From the NCBI RefSeq assembly GCF_963506605.1, contig NC_083288.1:29822001-29886000 (forward strand): DNA of 64,000 bases. The letters run 5' to 3'. Every line of letters starts with the position of its first letter. The stretch's first letter is position 1. The notes under the pieces are model-generated. The model did no database searches. It saw only the letters and a list, made by a program, of their open reading frames with translations, and was not told the DNA's origin. This stretch comes from Zootoca vivipara (Eukaryota). A program made the translations under genes and the position numbers. Positions 3,918-60,160 of this stretch are shown here, in pieces.

Positions 3918-4125
3918 CTTACTATTTTTGTTCTACCTAGGGTTCTCTGCAGTATGCTTCTCCAGTGAAATTAAATGACTGCATATCACTCTACCCATAC
4001 CTGCAATTTTATAGTAATCCTCCAGCAGTTGGATTTATGATGACAAAAAACATGAATCAACATGGGGAAGAGACTTATTAATAACTCTCCTGTCTTTCTA
4101 GAGATTTACTCTCACAGGAATTCAA
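3918..4125 (-). promoter_or_regulatory. Putative OR promoter and non-coding first exon (A1)
   Basis: Minus strand: O/E-like TCCTGTGAGA (4110-4119), TATAAAA (4007-4013), GTAAG donor (3918-3922); same layout upstream of every intact OR. Confidence 0.65.
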
Positions 4126-4173
4126 AACACATCCACATTAGGACTTTAGAGAAACAATACTGCATTTTGGTTA

Positions 4174-4331
4174 GTTGCAGGTAGGTAGCCGTGTTGGTCT
4201 TCCGTAGTCGGAAAAATTTTAAAAAATTCCTTCCACTAGCACCTTAGAGACCAACTAAGTTTGTCATTGGTATGACCAATGATAAACTTAGTTCGCCTCT
4301 AAGGTGCTACTGGAAGGATATTTTTTTATTT
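4174..4331. mobile_element. Penelope-like element remnant forming an inverted repeat
   Basis: 13-bp TSD TGCATTTTGGTTA; ~45-bp-arm hairpin at 4228-4318; shares sequence with 9891-10032; absent from B-type promoters; copy at ~23657-23813. Confidence 0.65.
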
Positions 4332-4621
4332 TGCATTTTGGTTAATTTTGCTAATTTGATTAGGAAAGTCTGTTTGTTTTGGTTATCATGAGAATAACAG
4401 AACTGTGAAGGGAACTAATCATTCCACTACAGCGTTATCAGATATACCCAGCTTCATGAATTTCTTCTGGCATGGATAGCTCTAACTATCAATGTTAATA
4501 ATGAGTGTAATGAGCCTAGGCAGCCAGCTTGATAACATAGTACGCCAGAGTAATTAACTTGAAGATTTATTGCAGACAAAGCAATTAGCCTCAGAGCACT
4601 CTTGCCTATCGTCCATTAGTA

Positions 4622-4759
4622 CAGTGTTTCTCAACCAGTGTGCCTCCAGATGTTTTGGGACTACAACTCCCATCATTCCTGACCACTGGTCTTGCTAGCT
4701 AGGGATGATGGGAATTGTAGTCCCAAAACATCTGGAGGCACACTGGTTGAGAAACACTG
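4622..4759. mobile_element. Palindromic hAT (Charlie-like) MITE
   Basis: TIR CAGTGTTTCTCAACC...GGTTGAGAAACACTG, 8-bp TSD CATTAGTA, empty site at ~24096. Confidence 0.9.
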
Positions 4760-5495
4760 CATTAGTACACTCAAGTTGACCCTTCTGAGGAATGTTTCCA
4801 GTGTCTGCAGAATATACTGAACCTATGAGCTTTGCATTTCTTGGTTTGTTTTCTGTCTAAAACCCTTCCCATTCATCAGATTCTTGGGCTCACTGGGTCA
4901 ACCAACTCCTCTTCTGGTGAAGAAAAGCTCTATCTTGCTTTTGAGCCTGCCTGCCTGAGAGCTTTGGCTTTGTTCCAGCCTGCTTCCAGCTACTGTCTTA
5001 TCTCTATTCCTTTTCGTGTCAACAAGAGGAGGGGGTGCCGGCTCTCCTCTGCCTGAGAGAAATCCAATCTTCTCTGCTGCTGGCTGGTTTCTAACTGAGG
5101 CTGCAAATCCTGGTTTTGGGCAGGCATGATCATGACACCACCCCCTCCCCTCCCCTATCCTCCTCCTCCTCCTCCTCCTCCTCCTCTTCCTGTCCTCCCT
5201 CTTTCTGAGGTTCGCTGTCTAGCCCTTCCCACCAGTCATCCTCACTCTCTTCCACATCATCTTCTCCTTGCAGGTTCCCCTCTATTCCCACTCTGCCTCA
5301 CTCTCTTCATCTTCTTCCTGTTGGGAGATTCATTCCCCGTGTGCAGTCATAGGTTTATTGTGTATCATATGACTGTATGTGTTTTCATTCCACAGAGTGG
5401 AAGTGACGTAGACAGGATGTTTGTCTTACGTGTTCCTGGAGTGGAACTATTGTTCCTTTGTTCATTCTCTTTACTGCCTGTGATGCTAGAGAGAG

Positions 5496-5666
5496 CAGGC
5501 CCGGCTCTAGGTGCAGTTCCGGTGGCACGGGGCGGCAGGGCCGGCAGGGGGAGGCACTGAGCGGTGAAGCCACGTGGAAGCCGTGCTGTGCGCTGTGAGG
5601 GCGGGGGCGCCGGAGCGATCTCCACACCTCAGCGCCAGGGCGCCTGACCTGCTTGAGACTGCCCTG
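5496..5666. mobile_element. GC-rich hAT MITE, related to 1986-2339, opposite orientation
   Basis: 8-bp TSD AGAGAGAG; ends CAGGCCCGGC.../...GCTTGAGACTGCCCTG; absent in paralog at ~24822. Confidence 0.8.
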
Positions 5667-6399
5667 AGAGAGAGGGAGCCATAATGAAGAGCTCCAAGTC
5701 TGTTTATATGTAAATAAACTAGCTTAGCCCAAAAGCTGTGCTACTGAGTCTGTCACGCTACTGCGCAAACCTCTGCGGATCATTAAAGTGCAGTGGTGCT
5801 TCACATCACCAGTCACTGTGATGTTCGGGCTGAAGAACGCTCAAGAAGCTCACGAACGATCTCCCAGGAGGGAGGGGACATGCCAGTCGGGTATGTGTGT
5901 CTGCCATGGCCTTACTCTCGAGTAGGCACCCTCCTGGACATGCTGACGTTTCCATAACCTCATACTCCCCCCTCCCTCCTCTTGGTTTGGGTTTGTTTGG
6001 GTACCTGTGGCTGAATTCTACCTGTAACCCAGGGTTACACATTCCCAGAATCCTCCCAATAATTTCCCTCATTTCCATAACCTTTCCAAGCTATGAAATA
6101 CTGCAATCTCCACCCCCTCCATTGAGAGTCCAACAACTGTGACACTTCAATTCTGGTTCACCTTCTATTATTATCGGGGGTGTGTGTGTTTGTGTGTGAC
6201 GTTTTTACGCTGTTTGGTATAGCCTTATCAACCCGACCCATCAAGGGTTAACTCAGACTCCGTGTCGACTGACTGAACGTACATGTTGAAATCCATCCAG
6301 GATGCAGCCACTGGACTATTTCTCTGTTTGAGGCTCATTATCTTCTGAGCGAGAGCCTCTTCTTGCATGCTGTCCATCATTTTTATGAAGGCATTTAAA

Positions 6400-6780
6400 T
6401 TGGCAAGAGTCCTGTCATTGTTTAATATTATCGGGGTCACCCAATGCCTTCTCAAAGGCTTTTTGGAACATAATGAAATTAAGGGGGGGGGGAATAAAGT
6501 GACTTTTGCCAGGAGGCGAGAATCCTCCCTCCTGGGGATACTAGACAGCGAAATCCCAAAGTATCCCTCAATGATATTGATATATGTGACTACAGCAGCA
6601 GAAATGGAATGAAGGAAGAATGGTTGATGATAATCTTGGAAGATGCAGAGATGGCAGAATTGATGGCACTGATAAAAGATGCAGATTTAGAATCCTTTAA
6701 AGAAGACTGGAACCATTTCTGGTCTATATAAAAATTTATTTCCCTTATGTGAAGACCACAGCAGGGCTTGAAGTGTAAGA
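6400..6780 (+). mobile_element. Old L1 ORF2 C-terminal remnant
   Basis: Degenerate LLGILDSEIPK...YVTTAA...EEWLM...MAELMALIKD, matching the C-terminus of the other L1s here; copies at ~25600-25970 and ~46860-47520. Confidence 0.6.
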
Positions 6781-6788
6781 AAAGAGCA

Positions 6789-6794
<6 letters not shown>

Positions 6795-8858: not shown

Positions 8859-9833
8859 TTACAAAAGAGGACTGGAAAGGTTTTTCCTAGAGGAGTGACT
8901 CAAACCCAATAGCTTTGACAGAGCATTTTTAATCTCCCTATTTCTCATGCTATAGATTACTGGATTCATCAAGGGTGGAACCATGGAATACATCACTGTA
9001 AATACCAAATCTAGATGTGGTGAGGTATTAGAGGGAGGCTTGAAGTATGCAAAGTAACCAGTAAATACATATAGGGCATAAACTATGAGATGGGGAAGGC
9101 AAGTCGAGAAAGCCTTTTGCCTTCCTTCAGTAGAGGGGATTTTCAGCACGGCAGTGAAAATGGAGACATAAGTTATGATGATGAAGATAAAACAGCCAAT
9201 CCCAATGACAGCACTTAACACGAGGACTCCTACTTCCATTAGATACAAATCAGTGCAGGCCAGCTTAAGTAACTGCGGGATTTCACAAAAAAATTGATTG
9301 ACTACATTGGAACAAAAGGGGGATGCAAAGGTACCTCCAGTGTGTAACACTCCATAGAAAAAGCTGCTGATCCATACACTGCCAATCATTTGTATGTAGG
9401 TTTGTCTATTCATCAGCATCCCATACTGTAATGGTTTGCAAATGGCAACATACCGATCATATGCCATGACTGTGAGAAGAAAGAAATCAGATCCCACAAA
9501 AAAGACAAAGAAGAGTACTTGTGCCACACACCCAGAGTAAGAAATGTACCTGGTGTTCATGAGGGAATTGAGCATGGATTTGGGATTAATGACTGAAACT
9601 TGTCCCAGGTCTTGCATGGCCAAGTTCATCAGGAAGAAGTACATAGGGGTGTGCAGGTGGTGGTCAATGGCTACTGCAGAGATGATGAGAAGATTCCCTG
9701 TGACAGTTGCCAAATACAATACCAGGAATATAATGGAATGAAGAATTTGTAGTTCCCGAACATCTGAGAATTCCAAGAGGAGAAATTCTGAGAAAGATGA
9801 TTGATTATCCATGCTCTGCTTCTTCACATTCAT
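8859..9833 (-). CDS. Olfactory receptor, family 14-like (B-type copy 1)
   Basis: Intact 324-aa ORF with all canonical OR motifs; CAG acceptor 4 nt before ATG. Confidence 0.96.
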   Translation of the reverse strand: MNVKKQSMDNQSSFSEFLLLEFSDVRELQILHSIIFLVLYLATVTGNLLIISAVAIDHHLHTPMYFFLMNLAMQDLGQVSVINPKSMLNSLMNTRYISYSGCVAQVLFFVFFVGSDFFLLTVMAYDRYVAICKPLQYGMLMNRQTYIQMIGSVWISSFFYGVLHTGGTFASPFCSNVVNQFFCEIPQLLKLACTDLYLMEVGVLVLSAVIGIGCFIFIIITYVSIFTAVLKIPSTEGRQKAFSTCLPHLIVYALYVFTGYFAYFKPPSNTSPHLDLVFTVMYSMVPPLMNPVIYSMRNREIKNALSKLLGLSHSSRKNLSSPLL

Positions 9834-10032: not shown

Positions 10033-11896
10033 CTTTTCATTTAAGTTTTTGTTGCTGGTGATGATGTTAAGTTATTGTAGCAGGCAGCAACGTCCTGAAG
10101 AAGTTACTAATTTGGGGGCGGGGCAATGAGCCCGAAAATGATGATGATGATGACTGTGAATACTAGTGCTATTATCATTATTATTAGCAATGCAATTATG
10201 TTTGTAAGGTCATTATGGTTTGTTCATATCGCTGATCCACTATTTCCCTTAAGAGCTTGACTATTTAAAGGAGTTAGATGCCAAATATCCCGCTTTCTGC
10301 TGACTGAATCTTTTGAAAGTGGATCAGATTCACATACACAATAATGTTGTCCAAGTCCAGTCAATACCAGCCAGATATTCTTCCCACCCTAATATAATGC
10401 CATAGCTCAATTGTAGAAGGAAAAAGGCCATTTCATAATTTATTAGAAACCATGATGACAGTGTGAATCTGACATGAGCTAACTCATCACAGTCAATAGT
10501 CATCATCTTTAACATCCTGATAATTACTAAGGAGGGCTTTTACTATTTCTTTGTTTCTCTTGATTTCTCATCAGGGAAAGATGCTTGGTAAAACTACAGT
10601 AAGCTTCTGATTTAATGGGAAAGCTCCCAGCTTAGGGAAAGAGCACATGTTTCCTCAGATCAGGGTCTGGTATCTCCAAGGAGGACTAAGATAGATCACT
10701 GCCTCACACCCTGTAGAGCTGCTGCCAATCAGGGTAGCCCACCTTTCCCCAACCTGGTGCCCTCCAGATGTTTTGGACTAGAACTTCCTAAGCACTGACA
10801 TGGCTGCCTGGGTCAAAGGAATTGTAATCCAAAGCCTAAGGACGGCAGCAGGTTAAGGGAGGCTGATGCACATAAAAACATAGGTAGCCAGTCTATACTG
10901 GGTCAAAACCAGTGGTCCATCTAGCTCAATTTTTACTACAATGAATGGCAATGGCTTGCCGGTTACCAGATATTATTTCCCCCCCACACCCTATCTGAAG
11001 ATGCCTGGGAACTTCAGCATACAACAAGGGTCCTCCACCACCAAGCTGCAGACCTTCCCCACTGGCAATGCTGAGGTAGAGGTATCAATGGTCTGACGTA
11101 ACATGTGAAAATGGTTGCCTCCTTTCCACTAGATGGAAGATTTTGAAAGAATGGGAAAGGAATTGGTGTCCACAAATGGCTGCAGAAATATGAAGGGTAA
11201 TATAAACAGAGGGAAGTTTGAACTTGTAACCAGCCCAACGAAAAAATAAAATGTGAGAGTTACAATTCAAAAGTAAGAGGGAGAAGGTACAAGAGTAAAA
11301 TACACATCATATAATCATCAGCTAGGTGGAAATGAAAATAAGTCCTAAAGAAAAAGAGCAACATAGGCTTCACAGAGTATAATGTGAAGCTGCACCGCAA
11401 TTGCCACAAAATCATCCAGACAGTCACCGTATTATTTCAGTTAATATTTGCCCAGGATATACAAAACCTTTCCCCTTAATATGTGACATGGTTCGACATC
11501 ACCAGGCTTTTAAGAAATAAAAAAATAAAAACTCCTCTTTTTAAAACTCCTCAGATAGTTTCCCAGATGAGAAATATGGATATTCAATGCAAATGTGAAT
11601 TTACATTCTATTTCAGTGACTAGTCCAATCGCCAACTGTATACCTCTGAGTTAGAAATCTACAGCAAATTCATTCAATTCATGTTGCAATTCACTTCCTA
11701 GTATGAAAATATCTGAAAATAACCAGAATATAGATTCCATACATGTTGATGTACCTTGTGTTATGCCAGATTCATGAACAGAGGTAGAGTTCCAGGAGAG
11801 AGTGACTATTGGTGCAGGAGAAAATATAACAGCTAGAGATGACGAAGGGAGTGTGACCGGTTCATTTCTTTCATTCAGAAAATCCAAAGAAAGTAT

Positions 11897-12160
11897 CATA
11901 CTGTTTTTCTTCATATTCTTTTACTTCTCCAGTGCCATTAAAGGACTAGATGCCACTCCAGCCAAACATGCAATTTTATAAGATTCCACTTGCATTGGTA
12001 TCTATTAGGACAATAAACATTTATCAACATGGGGAAGAAATTGATTCCTATATATTCTGTCTTCCTAGAGATTTGTTCTCATGGGAATTGAACATATCTC
12101 AGCATTAAGGTTGTACAGAAACAATGATATATTTTGGTCAGTTTTGCTAATTTGATTAGG
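11897..12160 (-). promoter_or_regulatory. Putative OR promoter and first exon (B1)
   Basis: Homeodomain-like CTAATCAAATTAG (12147-12159), O/E TCCCATGAGA (12077-12086), TATAAAA (11974-11980), GTATG donor (11897-11901). Confidence 0.65.
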
Positions 12161-12521
12161 AAAGCCTGTTTGTTTAGGGTATCAGGAGAATAATGAGACT
12201 AAGGGTCTCACAGGCAAGGTGGTGGATAAATCACACAGTTCAAGCTGGAGTTAGCTCCATGAAATCAGTAGTTCTGACTACATGAAATCAGTAATTCTGA
12301 CTACATGAAATCAGTTGCCCACACTGAATGTTCCTGCCTCCCCACAGCTGCCTGTGTCTCCTTTTCACCAGGGCTCCTTAAAAACAATCAGAGACTACAC
12401 CTGCATGTAGCCTGCCTTTGCTCCTCCTCTCCTGGTTCTGGGAGTAAGTGAGGAGGGGATCCTGCTGCCAAGATGATGTCAGTCATGCACGCCACACGAT
12501 GTGCTGACATCAGTTGTGAGT

Positions 12522-12974
12522 GCCCGTTTGCTTATTCATCAGCATCTCATATGGTAATGGTTTGTAAATGGCAACATACCAATCGTATGTCAAGGCTGTG
12601 AGAAGAATGAAATCAGGTATTGAAAAGGTGAGACAGAAGAGGATTTGAGAAACACACTCAGAGTAAAAGGAATAAATAAATGTGCCTGGTGTTTATTAGG
12701 GAATTGGTCATAGGTTTGAGGATACTGGCTGAAACTTGGCCCAGGTCCTGCATGGCTACATTCATGAGAAGGAAGTACATGGGATTGTGGAGGTGGTGAT
12801 CAAAGGCTGCTGCCTAGATGTTGAGAAGATTTCTCACAACTGCTGCCAGGTAAAACACAAGGAATAGAAAAATATATAGAAGCTGTAGCTCCCAGACCCC
12901 AGAAAATTCCATGAGAATAAATTCTGACAGAGAGGATTAACTATGCTGTGCTCCTTCATATCCTTATTGCCCAT
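12522..12974 (-). pseudogene. Truncated OR pseudogene P1 (N-terminus to just past the DRY motif)
   Basis: Degenerate ...KEHSIVNPLS.EFIL...FDHHLH.PMYF...LTALTYDWYVAIYKPL; frameshifts; 3' half missing. Confidence 0.85.
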
Positions 12975-13120
12975 GGATAGAAGCAGAAGGGCATGTTAAG
13001 AAATCTAAGTTTTTTGGGGAAAATAAAATAAGAGGAGGGGGAGGAAGAAGTGGAAGGAGGACTCTGAATATTTTCACTACTGTTATAAGCAATTCTTGCA
13101 AACTCATGTGAATGGTGCTG

Positions 13121-22051: not shown

Positions 22052-23020
22052 TCACAAAATAAGACTGGAAAGCTTTTGCATAGAGGAGTGACGCAAACAC
22101 AATAGCTTTGACAGTGCATTTTTAATCTCTTTATTTCTCATGCTATAGATTCCTGGATTCATCAATGGTGGAACCATGGAATACATCACTGTAAAAGCCA
22201 AATCCAGATGTAATGAGCTAGGCTTAAAGAAAGCAAAGTATGAAGTGAATACAAATAGGCAGTAAACAATGAGGAGATGGGGAAGGCAAGTTGAGAAAGC
22301 CTTTTGCCTTCCTTCAGAAGAGGGGATTTTCAGCACGGCAGTGAAAATGTACACATAGGATATAATGTTGAAGATAAAGCAGCCAATCCCAATGACAGCA
22401 CTTAACACAAGAACTCCTATTTCCATTTGATACAAATCAGTGCAGGCCAGCTTAAGTAACTGTGGGATTTCACAAAAAAATTGATTGACTACATTTGAAC
22501 AAAAGGGGGGTGCAAAGGTACCTCTGGTGTGTAACACTCCATAGAAAAAGCTGCTAATCCACACACTGCTAATAATTTGGATGTAGGTTTGTCTATTCAT
22601 CAGCATCCCATACTGTAATGGTTTGCAAATGGCAACATACCGATCATATGCCATGACTGTGAGAAGAAAGAAATCAGATCCTGCAAAGAAGACAAAGAAG
22701 AGTACTTGTGCCACACACCCAGAGTAGGAAATGTGTCTGGTGTTCAAGAGGGAATTGACAATGGACTTGGGAATAATGACTGAAGCTTGCCCCAGGTCCT
22801 GCAAGGCTAAATTCATCAGGAAGAAGTACATAGGGGTGTGCAGATGGTGGTCAAAGGCTACTGCAGAGATGATGAGAAGATTCCCCGTGACAGTTGCCAA
22901 ATACAATACCAGGAATATAATGAAATGTAGAATTTGTAGTTCCCGAACGTCTGAGAATTCTAGGAGGAGGAATTCTGAGAAAGATGATTGATTATCCATG
23001 CTCTGCTTCTTCACATTCAT
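22052..23020 (-). CDS. Olfactory receptor, family 14-like (A-type copy 2)
   Basis: Open frame with OR motifs; start at MNVKK after the acceptor; atypical changes (HTRG, PHLLIV, NPGIY). Confidence 0.92.
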   Translation of the reverse strand: MNVKKQSMDNQSSFSEFLLLEFSDVRELQILHFIIFLVLYLATVTGNLLIISAVAFDHHLHTPMYFFLMNLALQDLGQASVIIPKSIVNSLLNTRHISYSGCVAQVLFFVFFAGSDFFLLTVMAYDRYVAICKPLQYGMLMNRQTYIQIISSVWISSFFYGVLHTRGTFAPPFCSNVVNQFFCEIPQLLKLACTDLYQMEIGVLVLSAVIGIGCFIFNIISYVYIFTAVLKIPSSEGRQKAFSTCLPHLLIVYCLFVFTSYFAFFKPSSLHLDLAFTVMYSMVPPLMNPGIYSMRNKEIKNALSKLLCLRHSSMQKLSSLIL

Positions 23021-23400: not shown

Positions 23401-23610
23401 CTTACTATTTTTGTTCTACCTAGGGTTCTCTGCAGTATGCTTCTCCAGTGAAATTAAATGACTGCATATCACTCTACCCATACCTGCAATTTTATAGCAA
23501 TCCTCCAGCAGTTGGATTTATGATGACAAAACAACATGAATCAACATGGGGAAGAGACTTATTAATAACTCTGCTGTCTTTCTAGAGATTTACTCTCACA
23601 GGAATTCAAA
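23401..23610 (-). promoter_or_regulatory. Putative OR promoter and first exon (A2)
   Basis: GTAAG donor 23401-23405, TATAAAA 23490-23496, O/E-like site 23594-23603. Confidence 0.62.
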
Positions 23611-27256: not shown

Positions 27257-28231
27257 TCACAAAATAAGACTGGAAAAGGTTTTCATCGAGGAGTGACTCA
27301 AACCCAATAGCTTTGACAGAGCATTTTTAATCTCCCTATTTCTCATGCTATAGATTACTGGATTCATCAAGGGTGGAACCATGGAATACATCACTGTAAA
27401 TGCTAAATCTAGATTTGGTGAGGTATTAGAAGTAGGCTTGAAGTACGCAAAGTATCCAGTGAATACAAATAGGGCATAAACTATGAGATGGGGAAGGCAA
27501 GTTGAGAAAGCCTTTTGCCTTCCTTCAGTAGAGGGGATTTTCAGCACAGCAGTGAAAATGTACACATAGGTTATCATGATGAAGATAAAACAGCCAATCC
27601 CAATGACACCGCTTAACACAAGAACTCCTATTTCCATTAGATACAAATCAGTGCAGGCCAGCTTAAGTAACTGCGGGATTTCACAAAAAAATTGATTGAC
27701 TACATTGGAACAAAAGGGGGATGCAAAGGTACCTCCGGTGTGTAACACTCCATAGACAAAGCTGCTGATCCATACACTGCTAATCATTTGAATGTAGGCC
27801 TGCCTATTCATCAGCATCCCATACTGTAATGGTTTGCAAATGGCAACATACCGATCATATGCCATGACTGTGAGAAGAAAAAAATCAGATGCCATAAATG
27901 ACATAAACAAGAGTACTTGTGCCACACACCCAGAGTAGGAAATGTACCTGGTGTTCATGAGGGAATTGAGCATGGATTTGGGATTAATGACTGAAACTTG
28001 TCCCAGGTCCTGCATGGCCAAGTTCATCAGGAAGAAGTACATAGGTGTGTGTAGGTGGTGGTCAAAGGCTACTGCAGAGATGATGAGAAGATTCCCTGTT
28101 ACAGTTGCCAAGTACAATGCCAGGAATATAATGGAATGTAGAATTTGTAGTTCCCGAATGTCTGAGAATTCTAGGAGGAGGAATTCTGAGAAAGATGATT
28201 GATTATCCATGCTCTGCTTCTTCACATTCAT
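27257..28231 (-). CDS. Olfactory receptor, family 14-like (B-type copy 2, A-like tail)
   Basis: Intact 324-aa ORF with all OR motifs. Confidence 0.96.
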   Translation of the reverse strand: MNVKKQSMDNQSSFSEFLLLEFSDIRELQILHSIIFLALYLATVTGNLLIISAVAFDHHLHTPMYFFLMNLAMQDLGQVSVINPKSMLNSLMNTRYISYSGCVAQVLLFMSFMASDFFLLTVMAYDRYVAICKPLQYGMLMNRQAYIQMISSVWISSFVYGVLHTGGTFASPFCSNVVNQFFCEIPQLLKLACTDLYLMEIGVLVLSGVIGIGCFIFIMITYVYIFTAVLKIPSTEGRQKAFSTCLPHLIVYALFVFTGYFAYFKPTSNTSPNLDLAFTVMYSMVPPLMNPVIYSMRNREIKNALSKLLGLSHSSMKTFSSLIL

Positions 28232-30257: not shown

Positions 30258-30525
30258 CTTACTATTTTTCTTCATATTCTTTTACTTCTACAGTGCCATT
30301 GAATGATTAGATGCCACTCCAGCCAAACATGCAATTTTATAAGATTCCACTTGCATTGGTATCTATTTTAGGACAATAAACATTTATCAACATGGGGAAG
30401 AAATTGATTAATATATCTTCTGTCTTCCTAGAGATTTGTTCTCATGGGAATTCAACACATCTCAGCATTAGGGTTGTACAGAAACAATGATATATTTTGG
30501 TCAGTTTTGCTAATTTGATTAGGAA
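30258..30525 (-). promoter_or_regulatory. Putative OR promoter and first exon (B2)
   Basis: GTAAG donor 30258-30262, TATAAAA 30335-30341, O/E TCCCATGAGA 30440-30449, TAAT palindrome. Confidence 0.65.
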
Positions 30526-39537: not shown

Positions 39538-40548
39538 TCAGTGTGTGGGCTGTATACTGTAAACAGAATTTTCCTTTACAAGAGGACTGGAAAGGTTTTT
39601 CCTAGAGGAGTGACTCAAACCCAATAGCTTTGACAGACTATTTTTAATCTCCCTATTTCTCATGCTATAGATTACTGGATTCATCAAGGGTGGAACCATG
39701 GAATACATCACTGTAAATGCCAAATCTAGATTTGGTGAGGTATTAGAGGGAGGCTTGAAGTATGCAAAGTAACCAGTAAATACAAATAGGGCATAAACAA
39801 TGAGATGGGGAAGGCAAGTTGAGAAAGCCTTTTGCCTTCCTTCAGTAGAGGGGATTTTCAGCACGGCAGTGAAAATGGACACATAAGTTATGATGATGAA
39901 GATAAAACAGCCAATCCCAATGACAGCACTTAACACAAGAACTCCTACTTCAATTAGATACAAATCAGTGCAGGCCAGCTTAAGTAACTGTGGGGTTTCA
40001 CAAAAAAATTGATTGACTACATTGGAACAAAAGGGGGATGCAAAGGTACCTCCGGTGTGTAACACTCCATAGAAAAAGCTGCTGATCCATACACCAATAA
40101 TCATTTGGATATAGGCCTGCCTATTCATCAGCATCCCATACTGTAATGGTTTGCAAATGGCAACATACCGATCATATGCCATGACTGTGAGAAGAAAGAA
40201 GTCAGATCCCACAAAGAAGACAAAGAAGAGTACTTGTGCCACACACCCAGAGTAGGAAATGTACCTGGTGTTCATGAGGGAATTGAGCATGGATTTGGGA
40301 TTAATGACTGAAACTTGTCCCAGGTCCTGCATGGCCAAGTTCATCAGGAAGAAGTACATAGGGGTGTGCAGGTGGTGGTCAAAGGCTACTGCAGAGATGA
40401 TGAGAAGATTCCCTGTGACAGTTGCCAAATACAATGCCAGGAATATAATGGAATGTAGAATTTGTAGTTCCCGAATGTCTGAGAATTCCTGGAGGAGGAA
40501 TTCTGAGAAAGATGATTGATTATCCATGCTCTGCTTCTTCACATTCAT
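39538..40548 (-). CDS. Olfactory receptor, family 14-like (B-type copy 3, extended C-terminus)
   Basis: 336-aa ORF with OR motifs; 2-bp deletion removes the ancestral stop. Confidence 0.93.
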   Translation of the reverse strand: MNVKKQSMDNQSSFSEFLLQEFSDIRELQILHSIIFLALYLATVTGNLLIISAVAFDHHLHTPMYFFLMNLAMQDLGQVSVINPKSMLNSLMNTRYISYSGCVAQVLFFVFFVGSDFFLLTVMAYDRYVAICKPLQYGMLMNRQAYIQMIIGVWISSFFYGVLHTGGTFASPFCSNVVNQFFCETPQLLKLACTDLYLIEVGVLVLSAVIGIGCFIFIIITYVSIFTAVLKIPSTEGRQKAFSTCLPHLIVYALFVFTGYFAYFKPPSNTSPNLDLAFTVMYSMVPPLMNPVIYSMRNREIKNSLSKLLGLSHSSRKNLSSPLVKENSVYSIQPTH

Positions 40549-42491: not shown

Positions 42492-42755
42492 CTTACTATT
42501 TTTCTTCATTTTCTTTTACTTCTCCAGTGCCATTAAATGATTAGATGCCACTCCAGGCAAACATGCAATTTTATAAGATTCCACTTGCATTGGTATCGAT
42601 TAGGACAATAAACATTTATCAACATGGGGAAGAAATTGATTAATATATCTTCTGTCTTCCTAGAGATTTGTTCTCATGGGAATTCAACACATCTCAGCAT
42701 TAGGGTTGTACAGAAACAATGATATATTTTGGTCAGTTTTGCTAATTTGATTAGG
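42492..42755 (-). promoter_or_regulatory. Putative OR promoter and first exon (B3)
   Basis: GTAAG donor 42492-42496, TATAAAA 42569-42575, O/E 42672-42681. Confidence 0.65.
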
Positions 42756-49504: not shown

Positions 49505-50479
49505 TTACAAAAGAGGACTGGAAAGGTTTTTCATAGAGGAGTGACTCAAACCCAATAGCTTTGACAGAGCATTTTTAATCTCCCTATTTCTCATGCTATA
49601 GATTACTGGATTCATCAAGGGTGGAACCATGGAATACATCACTGTAAATGCCAAATCTAGATGTGGTGAGGTATTAGAGGGAGGCCTTAAATATGCAAAG
49701 TAAGCAGTAAATACAAATAGGGCATAAACTATGAGATGGGGGAGGCAAGTTGAGAAAGCCTTTTGCCTTCCTTCAGTTGAGGGGATTTTCAGCACGGCGG
49801 TGAAAATGTACACATAGGTTATAACGATGAAGATAAAACAGCCAATCCCAATGACAGCACTTAAGACAAGAACTCCTACTTCCATTAGATACAAATCAGT
49901 GCAGACCAGCTTAAGTAACTGTGGGATTTCACAAAAAAATTGATTGACTACATTGGAACAAAAGGGGGATGCAAAGGTACCTCCGGTGTGTAACACTCCA
50001 TAGAAAAAGCTGCTGATCCATACACCAATAATCATTTGGATATAGGCCTGCCTATTCATCAGCATCCCATACTGTAATGGTTTGCAAATGGCAACGTACC
50101 GATCATATGCCATGACTGTGAGAAGAAAGAAATCAGATGCCATAAATGACATGAACAAGAGTACTTGTGCCACACACCCAGAGTAGGAAATGTACCTGGT
50201 GTTCATGAGGGAATTGAGCATGGATTTGGGATTAATGACTGAAACTTGTCCCAGGTCCTGCATGGCCAAGTTCATCAGGAAGAAGTACATAGGTGTGTGC
50301 AGGTGGTGGTCAAAGGCTACTGCAGAGATGATGAGAAGATTCCCTGTGACAGTTGCCAAATACAACGCCAGGAATATAATGGAATGTAGAATTTGTAGTT
50401 CCCGAATGTCTGAGAATTCCAGGAGGAGGAATTCTGAGAAAGATGATTGATTATCCATGCTCTGCTTCTTCACATTCAT
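49505..50479 (-). CDS. Olfactory receptor, family 14-like (B-type copy 4)
   Basis: Intact 324-aa ORF with all OR motifs. Confidence 0.96.
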   Translation of the reverse strand: MNVKKQSMDNQSSFSEFLLLEFSDIRELQILHSIIFLALYLATVTGNLLIISAVAFDHHLHTPMYFFLMNLAMQDLGQVSVINPKSMLNSLMNTRYISYSGCVAQVLLFMSFMASDFFLLTVMAYDRYVAICKPLQYGMLMNRQAYIQMIIGVWISSFFYGVLHTGGTFASPFCSNVVNQFFCEIPQLLKLVCTDLYLMEVGVLVLSAVIGIGCFIFIVITYVYIFTAVLKIPSTEGRQKAFSTCLPHLIVYALFVFTAYFAYLRPPSNTSPHLDLAFTVMYSMVPPLMNPVIYSMRNREIKNALSKLLGLSHSSMKNLSSPLL

Positions 50480-50663: not shown

Positions 50664-50698
<35 letters not shown>

Positions 50699-50794
50699 GC
50701 AATGCAATTATGTTTGTAAGGTCATTATTGTTTGTTCATACCACTGATCTACTACCGGTATTTCCATTAAGAGCTTGACTATTTAAAGGAGTTA

Positions 50795-51039
50795 CCGTGT
50801 TTCTCCAAAAATAAGATGCCGTCTTATATTTATTTTTCCTCAAAGAACACACTATGAACACACTATGGCTTATTTTCAGGGGATGTCCTATTTTTTTTCC
50901 CCTCCTCCTGCTGCGGCCGGCATTGCTGCTGTGCCTATCACTATGTCTTATATTCGGGGTATGGCTTATATTCCTTGAATGCTTAAAAATCCTGCTACGG
51001 CTTATTTTATGGCTACAACTTACTTTCGGAGAAACAGGG
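50795..51039. mobile_element. Tigger/pogo-like MITE
   Basis: TA TSD, imperfect TIR CCGTGTTTCTCCAAAAATAAG...CTTACTTTCGGAGAAACAGGG; empty site GAGTTAGATG in paralogs (~10271). Confidence 0.8.
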
Positions 51040-52662
51040 TAGATGCTTTCTGCTGACTGAGTCTTTTGAATGTGGATCAGATTCACATACACAATAATGT
51101 TGTCCAAGTCCAGTCAATACTAGCCAGATATTCTGGCCCCCCTAATATAATGCCATAGCTCAATTGTAGAAGGCAGAAGGCAATTTCATAATTTATTAGA
51201 AACCATGATGGCAGTGTGAATCTGACATGAGCTAACTCATCACTGTCAATAGTCATCATCTTTAACATCCTGCTGATTACTAAGGAGGGCCTTTACCATT
51301 CCTTTGTTTCTCCTGATTTCTCATCAGGGACAGATGCTTGGTAAAACTACAGTAAGCTTCTGATTTAATGGGAAAGCTCCCAGCTTAGGGAAAGAGCACA
51401 TGTTTCCTCAGATCAGCGTCTGGGATCTCCAAGAAAGCCCACTGCCTCACATCCTGTGGAGCTGCTGCCCATCAGGGTAGCCCACCTTTCCCCAACCTAG
51501 TGCCCTCCAGATGTTTTGGACTAGAACTTCCTAAGCACTGTCATGGCTGCCTGGGTCAAATGAATTGTAGTTCAAAACCTAAGGAGGGCAGCAGGTTGAG
51601 GCAGGCTGATGTACATGAAAACACAGGTAGCCAGTTTATACTGGGTCAAAACCAGTGGTCCATCTAGCTCAGTTTTGACTATAATGAATGGCAATGGCTT
51701 GCCGGTTACTAAATATTATTTCTACCACCTACCCTCCCCATCTGAAGATGCCTGGGATCTTCAGCATACAACAAGGGTCCTCCATCACTGAGCTGCAGAC
51801 CTTCCCCACTGGCAGTGCTGAAGTAGAGGTACCAATGGTGTGACTCAGCATGTGACAATGGTTGCCTCCTTTCCACAGGATGGAAGGTTTTGAAAGAATG
51901 GGAAAGAAATTGGTGTCCAACCAATTACTGCTGATGAACAGTGGTAGAAATTTGAAGGGTAATATGGACAGAGGGAAGTCTGAACTTGTAACAGCCCAAA
52001 GAAAAAAAAATAACATGTGACAGTTACAATTTAAAAGTAAGAGGGAAAAGATATCATAGTAAAATACACATCATATAATCATCAGCTAGGTGGAAATGAA
52101 AATAAGTCCTAAAGAAAAAGAGCAACGTAGGCTTTGCAGAGTATAATGTGAAGCTGCACCACAATTGCCACAAAATTATCCAGACAGTCACAGTATTATT
52201 TCAGTTAATATTTGCCCAGGATATACAAAACCTTTCCCCTTAATATTTGACAGGGTTCAACATCACCAGGGTTTTAAGAAATAAAAAAATAAAAACTCCT
52301 CTTTTTAAAACTCCTCAGATATTTTCCCAGATGAGAAATATGGATATTGAATGTAAATTTGAATTTACATTCTATTTCAGTGACTAGTCCTATCGCCAAC
52401 TGTATACCTCTGAGTTAGAAATCTATGGCAAATTCATTCAATTCATGTTGCTATTCACTTTCTAGTATGAAAACATCTGAAAATATCCAGAATATAGATT
52501 CTATACATGTTGATGTACCTTGTGTTATGTCAGATTCATGAACAGAGGTAGAGAGTTCCAGGAGAGAGTGACTATTGGTGCAGGAGACAATATGACAGAA
52601 AGAGATGACGAAGGGAGGGTGACCGGTTCATTTCTTTCATTCAGAAAATCCAAAGAAAGTAT

Positions 52663-52930
52663 CTTACTATTTTTCTTCATTTTCTTTTACTTCTCCAGTG
52701 CCATTAAATGACTTGATGCCACTCCAGCAAAACATGTAATTTTATAAGAATCCACTTATGTTGGTATCTATTTTAGGACAATAAACATTTATCAACATGA
52801 GGAAGAAATTGATTAATATATCTTCTGTCTTCCTAGAGATTTGTTCTCATGGGAATTCAACACATCTCAGCATTTGGGTTGTACAGAAACAATGATATAT
52901 TTTGGTCAGTTTTGCTAATTTGATTAGGAA
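52663..52930 (-). promoter_or_regulatory. Putative OR promoter and first exon (B4)
   Basis: GTAAG donor 52663-52667, TATAAAA 52740-52746, O/E 52845-52854. Confidence 0.65.
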
Positions 52931-53167
52931 AGTCTGTTTGTTTAGGGTATCAGGAGAATAATGAGACTAATAGGGGAACTAATCATTCCGCTACAATTTT
53001 AGCAAATGTACTCATTTGCATGCAATTCTTCAGGCATGGAGAGCTCTAATTGCCAGTGTTAATGATGAGCAGCACCACATAAAGCCTTGTGTCACAGGGC
53101 AAGGTGGTGAATAAATCACACAGTTCAGAATAATGTGAAATTATTCCGCAATCTGACACAAAATAAT

Positions 53168-53312
53168 AATAGAATCATAGAGTTGGAAGGGACTCTGAGG
53201 ATCATTCTAGTCCAACCCCTGCAATGCAGGACTATGCAGCCGTCCGATACGGGAATCAAACCTGCAACATTGGCATTTTCAGTGCCATGCTCTAGGCAAC
53301 TGAGCTATCCAG
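53168..53312 (-). mobile_element. tRNA-derived SINE with CR1-like 3' tail
   Basis: Minus strand: A box TAGCTCAGTTG, B box GGTTTGATTCC, tail CCCTTCCAACTCTATGATTCTA. Confidence 0.75.
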
Positions 53313-53809
53313 GCTTCATTCACAGTATATATCCAATACTTCAGAAAATGTCTACCTGGGATGTACACATCCTTCCTCAGGAACACTTGACTACTTTTAG
53401 CAAACTTTCAAGGCTTTTCTTTAATGCAGAAAAGTCCTCTCCTTAAGATACTTCAGGTGAGGAGGAATGTCCAATTCAATTGTCAGTTGACATTAGCAAA
53501 TATTCAGTCTTGCTATCGATAACCTGTAGCCCTCCAGGATGGAGATTATACAGCAGATTTCTTTAATCCACATTGCAATTCACTTGATTGTGTGAAAATA
53601 TCTGAAAATTTCAAGAAAATAGACAAAGTGCATACACTTAAGTACTTTGTCCAATTCCAGACTCAAGAATACAGAGAAACTTGCAGGACAGAGCGACTAT
53701 ACAGTATGTGGAGGAAAGACCATGATAGAGAGATAGGGACATAGGGAGGGGAGATTAATTATTTTCATATAGAGTCCAATTGCAAAAAACAAAACAAAAA
53801 ACTAAACAG

Positions 53810-54030
53810 CTTACTATTTTTCTTTGTAGAATTCTTTCCACATTTTTTAAATGACTGCATATCATACCAGCTACACATGCAATTATATAAAAATACTCCT
53901 ACACTTGGAACTATAAGGGCAATAAAATTTGTCAGCATGGGGAGGAGATTTATTAATAACTCATTTCTGTTCCTAGAGATTTGGTTTCAGAGGAATTGAA
54001 AGCCTCTCGGTAGTAGAGCTGCACAGAAAC
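53810..54030 (-). promoter_or_regulatory. Orphan diverged OR promoter and first exon
   Basis: GTAAG donor 53810-53814, TATA-like 53883-53890, CATGGGGA and TCCTAGAGA blocks as in the other promoters. Confidence 0.55.
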
Positions 54031-54331
54031 AAAAATTTTTCACATATGACAATCCAAAGAAACAACAGCTTAGAATGGATATATGCCCATTTTCAGAAGC
54101 ATCCACAACAGGAACTGCAGCAAGGTGAATGGTCACGGCTGCATGTTTAATTAGTACCAGGAACATAGAATTATGGAATGAGGTGTTTGGGGGAAAGTCA
54201 AGTTAGCTCTACTCCCTTCTCAAATGAGGAAGGTATCTTTTTTGATCCCTCTATCCCTCTCCTCCATTCGTAGGAAATGAATCGTGATAGCATTTTATTC
54301 TGTGAACTGCCCTGAGATCTCCGGGACAGTA

Positions 54332-54377
<46 letters not shown>

Positions 54378-54839
54378 TTCAAAGAGATAGCTGTATCTCA
54401 TCCCAGCACAAAACAGCTCCAACTGACCTACATCATTTGCTCCCTCATTTTATCCTCATAGGAACTGTAAGGAAAACACTAGCTAAGGCCAAAAGTCAAA
54501 CGTTGAACTTTTTGTGCGAGTGGGAATTTGAACCCGTTTCAATACGATCAAACAGACTTCCCCATACTGGTGCCCTTCAGATGTTTTGGACCAACGTCTA
54601 TCAGCCCCAGCCAGAATAAGCTAATGGTCACTCCAAAATAACACACAGACACTCCAAAATAATACACAGGGGTGGGAGAAGAAGGCTGCTGTAAACAGAG
54701 GGTCTCCTGAAGATACCATTTCATCAGCAGATCTGTTCCATTTGGGCCTTTAGTGTGGTGGCATTTACCCTGTGGAAATCCTTCCATTTATATATTAGGC
54801 AATGTCTATATTGCCTTTTTGGCATCTGTTGAGGACTTT

Positions 54840-55478
54840 CAGAGGCGTCTTTCTCATAGGGCCTAGTGGCTCCGGCCTCTCAGGGGCGCTGGCAGGGCGC
54901 AACCAACCACTAAGCCCTATGGCTCCTCCTTTTCCTCCTCTCCCTTGGCTGCAGGAATCCCCTCAGCCGCTGCCTGCTGAGCTGCTGCAGCAAGAGCACC
55001 GGCAGTGGGCTGTCGTCAGGCAGCGGAGGAGGAGGAGGTGCCCCGGAGCCTCGCAAGTGAGCATGGGGTTCCGGCGGTCTGGCCAGGACTCCGTGTCACG
55101 CCTCCTTCTCCTTTCCCCCACTCTGGGCTCCGCTCAGTCAAGCTTCGCCACCAGCGTGCTCACAGCGCCCAAATGGCTTTTGCTGGTCCCACGGTGCGTG
55201 CACTGGTGGCTCGTGGAATGCAGGGCAGAGGCGGGCGCACGGCGCCACGTCTCTCTGGCTGGGGCTCCTGCTCTTTCTCCCGCAAGCCAGAGACTTTGGG
55301 AGTCACGCAGCATGTCACTTTCCTTCCCCGAGGCTGGAAGAGGGAGGGCAACACCTCCTCCACACCCCTCCCTCTTTGGGAAAGCTGCAAGCTCTGGTGA
55401 GCTCTAAATTTTGAAAAAGGGAAGGGGCACCGGAGGGATCTTTGCGCCACGGTGCTAGATGTGCTTAAGATGGCCCTG
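54840..55478. mobile_element. GC-rich hAT non-autonomous element
   Basis: 8-bp TSD AGGACTTT; right end GCTTAAGATGGCCCTG resembles the ends of the 1986 and 5496 elements. Confidence 0.8.
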
Positions 55479-56986
55479 AGGACTTTCATCTTTCAACATG
55501 CCTTCTAAGTGGATGGTCTTATCCCAGTTGGTATCTGTATTGGATTTGACAATATTTGTGCTAAATCAGGACTTCTTTTACCCTTGGTTAACCCTCCAGG
55601 GGTGAAAAGCCAGTGATGGTTGTAGTCACCCCACTCTCTCTCACACACACAGAGAGAGTGGCACACATTTCAAATAGCACCTACTTCCCAATTGATTCAT
55701 GGAGATGAGCTGAAGAATGGTACTATTTCTCCACTTTACTCATCAAACGATCACCATGATGACTAGGGACTGGGTGCTAGTCTCATCCAAGCATGGAATC
55801 TACATTCTCTTTTGTACTTTTTGTGAAATTCAGAAAAGTCTTAGCTAGGGCTGGGCGAAAAATGCCCCCCCCCCCCAAAAAAAAAATGTGTGTTGTTGGC
55901 CTCACTACCGGTACTTCTAAATATCAGAGATTTGTTTTTCAGAGTACAATAAACAAGAGTGATATCAAGCCAGTATGGATTACACAGACCATGACCTTAC
56001 ATTTATAAGAATTAGAATGTCAACAAACAGAGCAAAAAGTGAATTAACATATAAAGAGAAAAGTAGTATAAATGCCTCTTTACTTATGAACACTTCAGAA
56101 TAATGTTGAGTTACAGAGTATTTCAAACTTTAGCATGTCTAGTTTACAATACTCACAACTTCTGAAATGTATTTCAGGTGCAAAATGTATGCTAAATTAG
56201 ATGGGAAATGTGAGTAATTAGGCAGCATTTAATAATTTTTAAAAATGAATACTCCAAATTTTACAGCTTAAATATGTGCACATAGTGTAAACATCACAAA
56301 AATATCAGTTTCTCATTGGGATTTACAAATACTGCACATTTATAGGAAAAGCTTGTGAGATTATTAACACATTAGACACAGAAAAAAAATATCATTGTGC
56401 CTTGAGCCAACTTAAATGAATGTCAGGGGCGCAATCTTTAGCCATTTAATTATTGAAGTAAACTTAATTGAATTCAGTGGTGAATATGTCCAATCTGACA
56501 TGCACAGAATTGCACTGTAATTTTGTTTAACTGAGGAAGGGCGACTACAGATAAATCCAGTCAAGACAGAAGCAATGGTGAACACCAGCCAATCTGAGCA
56601 GACGGCAAAGGTGTAGATGGTGCAACTGACCTGGAGGAATGGATGGAGGATGACTTTGTGAACACATAGAGAATTTTGTGTCTACACACCCAAATGTACC
56701 CATAAAATAAATGGTGAGTATCACAGAAATCAGAGTTGAAAGTGACTTGAAATGTCAACTTGCCTAATTCCCTGCTGATGCAGGAAAACCACTATTATAG
56801 CATCCCTAGCATATGGCCATCCATCATTTGCCTTTAAAAAAATGACTCATTTCCATCACCCTTTGACACCACCCTATTTTACTGTCAAAGTAATCTTTCA
56901 TCAAAATATCTTTTGTTGCAAATCAAACCTATTGGTGCAGGTCTTGTCATCTGGAGCAAAGGGAACTCTAAACATATCCAGACCCT

Positions 56987-57970
56987 TCACCTTTGGAGGA
57001 AAAAAAAACTAGAGAAGGCATTCATAGAAGAGAGCCTTGAACCCAGCAGTTTTGACAAAGCATTTTTTACCTCCTTGTTTCTCATGCTGTAGATTATTGG
57101 ATTCATCAGTGGTGGAACCATGGAATATATCATGGTAAATGCCAAATCCAAGTGTGATGGACTGTTAGAGGTGGGCTTGAGGTAAGCAAAGCAGCCAGTG
57201 AACACAAATATAGAGACAACAATGAGGTGGGGAAGACATGTGGAGAACGCCCTTTGCCTTCCCTCAGCAGAGGGGATTTTCAGCACTTCGGTGAAGATTT
57301 GTACATAGGTTGCAATGATGAAGATGAAGCAGCCTAACACAGTGACAGATCCTAACACAATAGCTCCAATTTCAAAAAGGTACAAATCAGAGCAGGCCAT
57401 CTTAAGCAAATGTGGGACTTCGCAGAAAAACTGATTGACCACATTGGAGCAAAGGGGGGAAGAAAAGGTACACCCAGTGTGTAAAACTCCACAAAGAAAG
57501 CTGCTGATCCATACTCTAATAACCATTTGGATGCAGGCTTGCATATTCATCAACATCTCATACTGTAGCGGTTTGCAAATGGCAACATATCGATCATATG
57601 CCATAACTGTGAGGAGAAAGAAATCGGATATTAAAAAGAAGAGAAAGAAGAAGACTTGAGCAACACATCCTGCGTAAGAAATGTATCTAATATTTAAGAG
57701 GGTGTTGGCCATGGATTTGGGCATAATCACTGAAACTGAACCAATGTCCTGTATAGCCAAGTTGATGAGAAAGAAGTACATGGGTGTTTGCAGGTGGGAG
57801 TCAAAGGCTACTGCAGAGATGATGAGAATATTTCCTATAAGTGCTGCCAGATAAAAAGCAAGGAACATACAGAAGTGTAGAATCTGTAGTTCCCTTACTT
57901 CTGAAAATTCCATTAGAAGAAATCCTGACGGAGAGGATTGATTAACTATGCTTTGCTCCTTAGTATCCAT
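56987..57970 (-). CDS. Olfactory receptor, family 14-like (divergent C-type)
   Basis: Intact 327-aa ORF: LQTPMYFFL, MAYDRYVAIC, RAFSTCLPHL, PPLMNPIIYSMRN; CAG acceptor 5 nt before ATG. Confidence 0.96.
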   Translation of the reverse strand: MDTKEQSIVNQSSPSGFLLMEFSEVRELQILHFCMFLAFYLAALIGNILIISAVAFDSHLQTPMYFFLINLAIQDIGSVSVIMPKSMANTLLNIRYISYAGCVAQVFFFLFFLISDFFLLTVMAYDRYVAICKPLQYEMLMNMQACIQMVIRVWISSFLCGVLHTGCTFSSPLCSNVVNQFFCEVPHLLKMACSDLYLFEIGAIVLGSVTVLGCFIFIIATYVQIFTEVLKIPSAEGRQRAFSTCLPHLIVVSIFVFTGCFAYLKPTSNSPSHLDLAFTMIYSMVPPLMNPIIYSMRNKEVKNALSKLLGSRLSSMNAFSSFFFLQR

Positions 57971-58148
57971 GCTGTCTGTGGAAGGAAATGGGACAGGTGT
58001 TAAGAGGAAATTGAAAGATTGTAAGCAGTGGACCTACAGTAAAGTACTTGCACTTTGGATTTCAAAATAGCAATAATAGTTACAGCTATGCATCATGTAT
58101 TTTGGAAAAAGAAGTTATGCTATGTCCATACACCAAGGTAGTGGTATA

Positions 58149-58392
58149 GAGTGGTACCTCTACTTACGAATTTAATGCGTTCTGAACGCACATTCGTAAG
58201 TCGGAAAAAATTGTAAGTCGAATTCCACAGGAATGCATTGGGAGAAAAAAATTCGTAAGTCGAAGCAACCCTATCTAAAAATTCATAAGTAGAAAAAATC
58301 CTATATAAATCCCATCCAAGATGGTGGACGGAGTTCCGTTCGTAAGTAGAAACATTCGTAAGTAGAGTTATCTGTAAGTAGAGGTACCACTG
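58149..58392. mobile_element. Tc1/mariner MITE
   Basis: TIR AGTGGTACCTCTACTTAC...GTAAGTAGAGGTACCACTG, TA TSD. Confidence 0.85.
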
Positions 58393-58684
58393 TAATCTAA
58401 AATATGCAGATGGAAGCAATTTTAAAACTGGTAACGAGGCAGGGGCAGGCAGAAGAAGAATAGGTGATTGCTGTAACTGAGTATACATTGACTTCTACTT
58501 CTTTACTGAGAATTCATGCCAATTTATTTGGTCAAATTTTACAGAAGGGTGCTATAATAGTCATTGTTTATTGAACATTCATTATGATTTGGTTGTTAGG
58601 AGGTGCACTTTCTCATTACTTTCCTTAGTGCAAAAAAATTATAATAGAGCCCCAAATCCACAAAAATATCCATTCACCTGGGGC

Positions 58685-58688
<4 letters not shown>

Positions 58689-58739
<51 letters not shown>
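58689..58739. repeat. (GT)n microsatellite
   Basis: Directly visible. Confidence 0.95.
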
Positions 58740-58740
<1 letters not shown>

Positions 58741-58982
58741 TGTTTGCCACACAGCATGGTCATGTCCAGACAGGGGAAATCACCACCTACCTGCATTGCT
58801 GGGGGAGGGTGATGGTTGCCTACCACCACCCTCCACCTTGCTGTGCCAGACCTTCAAAATGGGCAGGCCTTACCCACAAAGCAATTGGGGCAAGAGCATG
58901 GGGGGCTGCCTACCCCTGATGTATTTAGGAAGGCAACCTGGAGCAGGCTGCCCTCTTGGTTGATTTGCCAGTATGTAACTAA

Positions 58983-59315
58983 ACACATAAGAAGAGCTCA
59001 ACTGGATCAGGCCAAAGGCCTCTGTGCTCTAGAATCCTGTTATCACAGTGACCAACCAGATCCCTATGAGAAGCCTGAGTTGAAGAGCAACCCCTAGTTT
59101 TTAGTGGTATTTAGAGGCAGACTGCTGTCTTTGACACTAGAGGTGGAACAGAGCCATCATGGCCAGAAAATGCCATTAACACTTTGTGTCATAAATTAGT
59201 CTAATTCCCTCTTTTAAAGCCACCCAAGTCGGTGACTCTGACTACAATTTGTGGAAGTGAATTCCATTGCTAAAGGATATGCTATGTGAAGAAGGACTTT
59301 CTTTTGTCTATCCTA
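58983..59315 (-). mobile_element. Old CR1-like LINE 3' fragment
   Basis: ACATAAGAAGAGC...CTGGATCAGGCCAAAGG-type CR1 3' terminus in reverse. Confidence 0.5.
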
Positions 59316-59947
59316 AATTAAACAACCTTAAGGTTCCAGGTATTGGTGCGTATTGGTCCACTTTTCTGTATTTTGCAATGCAATTCTGCAATCTCCCCCC
59401 CCCCCCAATACATTAAACATGTATGTATAGTGCATATTATGGGAAACTGCAATAAAAATGCACACAACAGTGAATGTTAGTGGGGGGAATGTACAAAGAT
59501 ATATTATGTTTGGGGAAGGTTCTTGTAAATGTATGTAGTGGATATAATTGTGTGAAAATGAATATTTTAAGAAAAAAATGTGCATGGCAATTTGTATGAA
59601 TGTTCATGCAGACTATTCAGCAAAAAACACACACAGAAACTGATGTGGAAATACTGCAAAGAGAACTTAAGATTGTAAAAATGAGTAATGGAGAAAAATC
59701 AAAATTGAGAGATTCATCCATCTTTATCAAAAACTGCACAATAGACTGTTTACCCATTCTAAGCAATTAAAATGAACTGTAATAATCTGTTCTGTTTGAG
59801 TTTCATTGACAATAGAGAGTGCTGTGGGAAGGAGCAAATGTATGGGAAAGAAAAGAATGAGAGAGGGGAAAGGGAGGAGAGTGCATTGATTTTGCTTTGA
59901 GCTCAATTGACTACTAAGATCATAAGAAAAATGTAAGCACCTAATAG

Positions 59948-60160
59948 CTTACCATTTTTTCTTCACAAATTTCTCTCAACTTCATATTCTCTCCCTCCCT
60001 CCTCCAGTGGAAGTATTGAACATGTATCAGTTGAGCCATACAATACACTTTATAAACCCCTTTGTGTGGATCTATGATGACAATATCAATTTGTTAATGT
60101 GGGAAGGGACAATCATGTCCCTTTTGTGTTCTTAGAGATCTGCTCTCTTGGGAATCCAAG
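59948..60160 (-). promoter_or_regulatory. Putative promoter and first exon of C-type OR
   Basis: G|GTAAG donor 59948-59952, TATAAA 60049-60056, O/E TCCCAAGAGA 60144-60153, TCTCTAAGA 60130-60138; spacing conserved despite divergent surroundings. Confidence 0.62.

Follow-up and report, generated by a model that had tools for sequence, protein, structure and literature searches.

A conserved block with paired O/E-like sites, a likely proximal promoter and first exon, accompanies OR14-like olfactory receptor genes in the lizard Zootoca vivipara

The stretch analysed here, hereafter 'the window', comprises 64,000 nucleotides of the genome of Zootoca vivipara (NCBI RefSeq assembly GCF_963506605.1, contig NC_083288.1, positions 29,822,001 to 29,886,000, forward strand) and contains seven intact olfactory receptor (OR) open reading frames (ORFs), all on the minus strand. 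A compact homologous block, copied together with each OR14-like gene, is found upstream of these ORFs, and we consider it with good confidence to be the proximal promoter of the gene followed by a first non-coding exon. The block (or 'module') displays a homeodomain-like palindrome, a pair of O/E-like (Ebf-type) sites spaced by 15 bp and, at its end, a GT splice donor; one clade also has a TATA box. Its sequence, place and spacing, its conservation relative to flanking DNA and its restriction to one gene cluster were observed directly, as detailed below.

The window is part of a larger cluster, with 27 intact OR ORFs in the 264 kb formed by the window plus 100 kb on each side. These are single-exon intact ORFs, and the Pfam domain 7tm_4 (PF13853) was detected above cut-off in all three of the window ORs scanned. 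The OR14 label given in an initial annotation of this DNA agrees with the NCBI names of close relatives in lacertid lizards, i.e. 14A16-like or 14I1-like; these names are automatic, and the genes are accordingly termed 'OR14-like' on the strength of such names rather than of a family tree including reference ORs. The seven coding exons and eight modules of the window, assigned to types A, B, C and an orphan (O), are as follows:

2578..3543, minus strand, coding exon of OR A1; the predicted acceptor AG ends at 3548
3918..4119, minus strand, module A1: site 1 at 4119-4110, site 2 at 4104-4095, site 3 from 4068, TATA at 4013-4007, then predicted exon 1 and GT donor at 3922
8859..9833, minus strand, coding exon of OR B1
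11896..12159, minus strand, module B1: palindrome 12159-12147, site 1 12086-12077, site 2 12071-12062, TATA 11980, variant donor GTATGA at 11901
22052..23020, minus strand, coding exon of OR A2
23401..23603, minus strand, module A2: site 1 23603-23594, site 2 23588-23579, TATA 23496, donor 23405
27257..28231, minus strand, coding exon of OR B2
30258..30522, minus strand, module B2: palindrome 30522-30510, site 1 30449-30440, site 2 30434-30425, TATA 30341, donor 30262
39538..40548, minus strand, coding exon of OR B3
42492..42754, minus strand, module B3: palindrome 42754-42742, site 1 42681-42672, site 2 42666-42657, TATA 42575, donor 42496
49505..50479, minus strand, coding exon of OR B4
52663..52927, minus strand, module B4: palindrome 52927-52915, site 1 52854-52845, site 2 52839-52830, TATA 52746, donor 52667
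53810..53994, minus strand, orphan module O: weaker site 1 (6/8), site 2 53979-53970, TATA-like word 53889, donor 53814
56987..57970, minus strand, coding exon of OR C; the predicted acceptor AG ends at 57976
59948..60153, minus strand, module C: site 1 60153-60144, site 2 60138-60129, TATA 60054, donor 59952

The initial annotation had described one promoter module repeated eight times. Eight homologous minus-strand blocks do lie at the claimed places and in the claimed order, seven of them upstream of intact OR ORFs and one orphan; their spacing is similar, as had been proposed (99-108 bp from site 1 to TATA, 75-102 bp from TATA to donor), and a pyrimidine-rich AG precedes the ATG by 4 nt in types A and B and by 5 nt in type C. 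The junctions 3923->3547 and 59953->57975 match what the sequence predicts. Orphan O is followed by approximately 250 bp of homologous intron, its own coding exon being absent, and stands 1.1 kb upstream of module B4. Order and homology are common to all eight blocks, but the exact words are not, each being found in only four to seven of them: TCCCATGAGA (site 1) in four, TCTCTAGGA (site 2) in five, TCCCCATG (site 3), TATAAAA and the palindrome in six each, and GTAAG in seven, B1 carrying the variant GTATGA. Nor are the eight blocks independent. A1 and A2 are 95.5% identical along 2.3 kb, and the B1-B4 alignments (1.2-2.2 kb) show 91-95% identity; since such alignments mark these as recent duplicates, the eight copies count as four lineages (A, B, O and C).

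Beyond the window, a seed profile built from the eight blocks (cut-off E<0.02) retrieved six further matches, of which five precede an intact OR of the same strand by at most 3.2 kb (P=4e-4, against a chance fraction of 0.15). After four rounds, the profile recovered 23 copies in the 264 kb, window included: 21 of the 27 intact OR14-like ORs have a same-strand copy within 4 kb upstream, and the two further copies are orphans (O and the copy at C13:29913824). A weak match 231 bp upstream of the OR at -93225 (positions beyond the window are quoted on the window scale) was left out of this count. A held-out stretch of 200 kb, not used in profile building, gave 12 matches at a threshold of E<=0.2. 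Their strand is always that of the OR14-like genes nearby, and for seven an intact OR14-like ORF is no more than 5 kb away (P=0.002). Other OR clusters, sampled over 600 kb with 74 intact ORs (55 of other class II families, 19 of class I), yielded no profile match; this sample was drawn from the 138 candidate OR places that had been scored, out of 803. On reversed sequence, the iterated profile gave no match and the seed profile a single weak one. A tight pattern of the site pair, for which only specificity counts as it was derived from these same copies, matched ten times in the 1.44 Gb genome, always in this cluster (control: 0), and blastn-type genome searches returned close copies only. 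Within the sequence searched, the module is restricted to the OR14-like cluster.

Between lineages, conservation is highest over the site pair. O/E likeness was scored over the eight positions of TCYCNNGRGA, a symmetrised consensus (not a matrix) taken from Table 1 of PMC3247239. Module heads contain 32 sites scoring at least 7/8, versus two expected, and site 1 of types B and C matches all eight scored positions. As in promoters of the mammalian type, enriched and conserved O/E-like sites are found within approximately 200 bp upstream of the predicted start. The best second site begins 15 bp past the first in 19 of the 23 copies and in 12 of 13 lineage representatives, and at 16 bp in 11 of the 12 held-out matches; site 3 (TCCCCATG) is a trait of the window clade. 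A 15-bp rule for all lizard ORs was considered and rejected, no clear peak being visible in the 4 kb upstream of other families: pairs at 15 bp occur in 8 of 35 other class II lineages (range 1-12) and 2 of 14 class I lineages, and this type of count is weak even for OR14-like genes (8 of 18 lineages at 15 bp, and also 8 at 13 bp).

Upstream of the pair, the palindrome takes the form TAAT-N3-ATTA and, with at most one mismatch, is located at -68..-81 of site 1 in lineages B, D, F, H and I. Among lineages other than A and B, 4 of 11 have it at this place (P about 0.001). It had been presented as an addition of types A and B; it is indeed present in both, but the restriction to them does not hold, given its occurrence in D, F, H and I. 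In types A and C, the palindrome stands further away, beyond a repeat:

4351..4363, minus strand, displaced palindrome of A1, about -242 from site 1
23845-23833, minus strand, displaced palindrome of A2
4176..4335, no strand assigned, type A repeat insertion of approximately 160 bp between palindrome and site 1
60200..60545, no strand assigned, interspersed repeat of approximately 340 bp upstream of site 1 of module C; other copies are 79-83% alike
60610..60622, minus strand, likely displaced palindrome of C with one mismatch, approximately -469 from site 1 (profile E=0.0034)

The type A insertion has 87 blastn pieces in the 1.06 Mb analysed, self-match included. Insertion of these repeats pushed the palindrome away in type A, and probably in type C as well.

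Downstream of the pair, TATAWA is found in 9 of the 23 copies, i.e. in all nine of the A/B/O/C/G clade and in none of the 14 other copies near the window. The initial view of a TATA-containing promoter grammar is accordingly valid for the window clade only. An initiator-like word follows TATA by 33-37 bp in five of these nine. Seventeen of the 23 copies have a GT donor at a distance of 180-233 nt past site 1, and an acceptor-like AG precedes each gene. The short acceptor-to-ATG distance of 4-5 nt is a trait of the window clade, due to a 7-residue N-terminal extension. By eye, most genes of the 264-kb cluster have a pyrimidine-rich AG approximately 22-32 nt before the usual start of the family, and this is also seen in genes without a detected module.

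Many copies, read by hand, carry an ATG 13-18 nt before the donor. Only in D1 is this ATG both in frame and followed by an open reading; in D2 it keeps the frame but meets a stop, in D3, D4 and B the frame is shifted, and A and O lack the ATG altogether. A coding first exon, as part of a conserved two-exon coding region (PMC7055050), was rejected on these grounds, and exon 1 is therefore best taken as non-coding. In type B, the spliced frame of the upstream ATG, followed by hand, reaches a stop overlapping the OR start codon. The last 20 nt of the predicted exon 1 contain, in most copies, a purine-rich GAAGAA-type run before a donor with a weak exon side; this run may be an exonic splicing enhancer.

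Could this likeness be purely inherited? Under neutral hitch-hiking, joint duplication with the genes would be the sole source of the resemblance among the blocks, and the motifs would be the best columns picked by the reader. The reduction of eight copies to four lineages fits such a scenario, as does the choice of motifs after the sequences had been viewed. Moreover, in the intron, A is identical to B at 217 of 295 B3 positions (approx. 74%), equal to the non-motif part of the promoter, so that homology alone explains much of the likeness within the window; common descent would in fact explain most of it, and PMC3247239 warns that shared descent can mimic motif conservation. Deeper comparisons point the other way. 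Once the converted-looking pairs A1-B3 and E3-L are set aside, the 13 lineages compared agree at 59-78% of amino acids and at 0.33-0.77 of four-fold sites; their excess of identity above shuffled sequence is greatest between -40 and +60 relative to site 1. Site pair and donor persist at four-fold identities of 0.33-0.6, where flanks are no better than shuffles. For eight lineages outside the seed clade, ungapped identity reaches 0.72 in site 1, 0.54 in the 5-bp linker and 0.65 in site 2, versus 0.27-0.33 in the flanks. The refuting outcome named in the initial annotation, motifs no better conserved than flanking DNA, was not observed. Motif columns are also better kept than other columns, not only when A1, O and C are set against B3 (0.89 versus 0.66, a post hoc figure, the motifs having been picked from these sequences), but also in five lineages outside the window (0.73 versus 0.62, p=0.023). 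We hold hitch-hiking to be very improbable; it is likely that the sites were preserved by selection as spacer sequence drifted.

A functional block could still be read by something other than two Ebf dimers, such as an Ikaros-family factor, an RBPJ-type factor or a single factor bound to a GRGA-N5-TCYC inverted repeat. Outside the window clade, site 1 begins with A or G instead of T, its right half TG(A/G)GA is the best conserved part, and the 5-bp linker is itself partly kept (0.54). Paired RBPJ sites need a longer spacer. O/E and Ikaros matrices are indistinguishable by scanning according to PMC3247239; the paper also gives O/E sites as the dominant motif of mouse OR promoters, and the full 8/8 match of site 1 in B and C speaks for O/E as well, which makes another reader unlikely, if less so than hitch-hiking. 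As improbable as hitch-hiking is a role as local enhancer, or as one first exon among several alternatives, with the main start located elsewhere. Orphan copies (O, C13:29913824 and five held-out matches) and the lack of TATA in most lineages would suit this idea, but every copy shares the strand of its gene, and most terminate in a GT donor whose distance varies little; an enhancer requires neither feature.

Several observations nonetheless weigh against a proximal promoter with a first exon. The module was not detected at 6 of the 27 ORs of the 264 kb, nor at 8 of the 15 held-out intact OR14-like ORFs, and the nearest intact OR is more than 5 kb away from five held-out matches and from two of the 23 copies. 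Copies in this situation include C13:29913824, 30038399, 30063246, 30087769 and 30097724, the last four forming one subtype in which TATAAA stands approximately 34 nt before a donor-like GTAAG; this gap (4 of the 12 held-out matches) is too short and therefore misfits a normal exon 1. TATAWA is absent from 14 of the 23 copies, the donor is weak on its exon side, where ATA or ACA is the usual sequence, and lineages G, O, J, K, E and L, like all 12 held-out matches, lack the palindrome at the usual position. Site 2 usually reaches only a 6-7/8 match, and the constancy of the spacing is partly ascertained, as copies were found by likeness to the seed. RNA reads over 49400-60300 and over a second locus fell almost only on repeats, with no usable OR or module reads and no splice joints, and are uninformative. 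Finally, a single genome was covered.

Taking both sides together, the proximal promoter and first exon remain our preferred reading, and the element is real, likely functional and ordinary in kind. The promoter and 5' non-coding exon with O/E- and homeodomain-like sites put forward by the initial annotation find support in position, conservation among paralogues and cluster specificity, and the factors, the start site, the splice and activity in olfactory neurons would follow by analogy with mouse. The palindrome would be occupied by a homeodomain protein of the Lhx2/Emx2 type and the O/E-like pair by Ebf dimers; transcription would begin approximately 30 bp after TATA in the A/B/C/G/O clade, and a first exon of approximately 45-70 nt would be spliced to the AG just before the coding exon. 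The recurrence of copies is due to tandem duplication. More speculatively, the O/E-like pair at 15-16 bp may be a cooperative double-Ebf element marking the sauropsid OR14 subfamily, in which repeat insertions displacing the homeodomain site (A, C) retune choice frequency and orphans such as O serve as extra promoters or local enhancers; we put this forward as a tentative idea, with rather low expectations.

Some further features of the locus were noted. Types A and B (2578-3543 versus 39538-40548) have near-identical coding exons, with four-fold sites at 0.87-0.93, and their promoters and introns, unlike their coding exons, are only approximately 74-76% alike, which suggests gene conversion confined to the coding exon. 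Gene L (C13:29982273 region, 160270 on the window scale) has a coding exon that groups with E3/E4 and an acceptor region identical to that of E3, and its promoter groups with K (93/89 support); it is likely a promoter-coding chimera. An OR pseudogene, broken and duplicated in part, is present in three copies (12382-13900, 30852-32320 and 44008-45360), which each lie directly upstream of a B-type promoter and have no module of their own; orphan O was considered as their promoter and rejected, linking homology being absent. Further from the main subject, an exon-sized ORF with an ANF_receptor domain (62197-62712, minus strand), 2 kb upstream of module C, is likely a piece of a V2R-type vomeronasal receptor, and more ANF_receptor-type exons are scattered among ORs at C13:30.05-30.08 Mb. 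The segments 16601-20039 and 33604-35467 (both plus strand) hold a LINE-like element with broken ORFs (RVT_1 match) and ORFs resembling those of a DIRS-type retrotransposon, the latter with no Pfam match at E<=0.001. The end of the window (62993-64000) is a tandem array of a 305-bp unit, with copies 99% identical, which continues past the window end.

In the literature found, OR promoter logic is that of mouse and other mammals. No analysis of lizard, squamate or bird OR promoters was found, among titles, abstract openings and few subscription papers. A fixed spacing of tandem Ebf sites was not found either, and supplementary mouse promoter tables could show similar spacing; the spacing of the O/E pair is the one feature not found in print, the rest being known in kind. 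With starts and junctions predicted for over 20 genes, this module of approximately 300 bp allows a direct test of whether OR choice was under Ebf/homeodomain control before mammals and reptiles diverged. Natural variants are on offer, namely modules with a shifted homeodomain site, modules with or without TATA, orphans, and promoters swapped between coding exons; together with the fixed pair, they provide a good test case for non-mammalian OR promoter logic. If the cooperative double-Ebf idea were true, a readable, spacing-based OR promoter code would exist outside mammals, with natural mutants in place.

Mouse OR promoters, as described in PMC5318403, PMC3247239 and PMC12547500, span approximately 300 bp, with O/E and homeodomain sites, sometimes a TATA box, and 5' UTR introns. 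A conserved O/E site lies within 200 bp in 78% of 314 mouse OR promoters and TATA is called in 39% (PMC3247239), and Table 1 of that paper lists a palindromic homeodomain matrix of the Cart-1 type. The lizard module resembles these proximal promoters in being a short AT-rich region with O/E-like site(s) within 200 bp of the (here predicted) start and, in several lineages, a homeodomain-like site, palindromic ones being known in mouse too (PMC3247239, PMC5318403), and likewise in its TATA subset, its (here predicted) 5' UTR intron and the single coding exon. Mouse promoters have zero to four O/E sites each, with no mention of a fixed pair spacing in the parts of PMC3247239 and PMC5318403 at hand, whereas the lizard module, known here from sequence, keeps one order and spacing across paralogues of approximately 60% amino acid identity. 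Tolerance of degenerate Ebf sites under stereotyped spacing recalls the Lhx2/Ebf composite of Greek Island enhancers (PMC5608512). Greek Islands, however, adjoin Lhx2 and Ebf sites, whereas the fixed lizard pair is Ebf-like/Ebf-like, with 68-81 bp separating the conserved palindrome from site 1, in a block that has an orientation and a splice donor at its end; an enhancer of the Greek Island type was rejected on this distance of the palindrome, judged without the published matrix. A further parallel in organization is with receptor subfamilies such as class I ORs, OR37 and V1R clusters, in which a common promoter layout is reported to be kept after duplication (PMC1995454).

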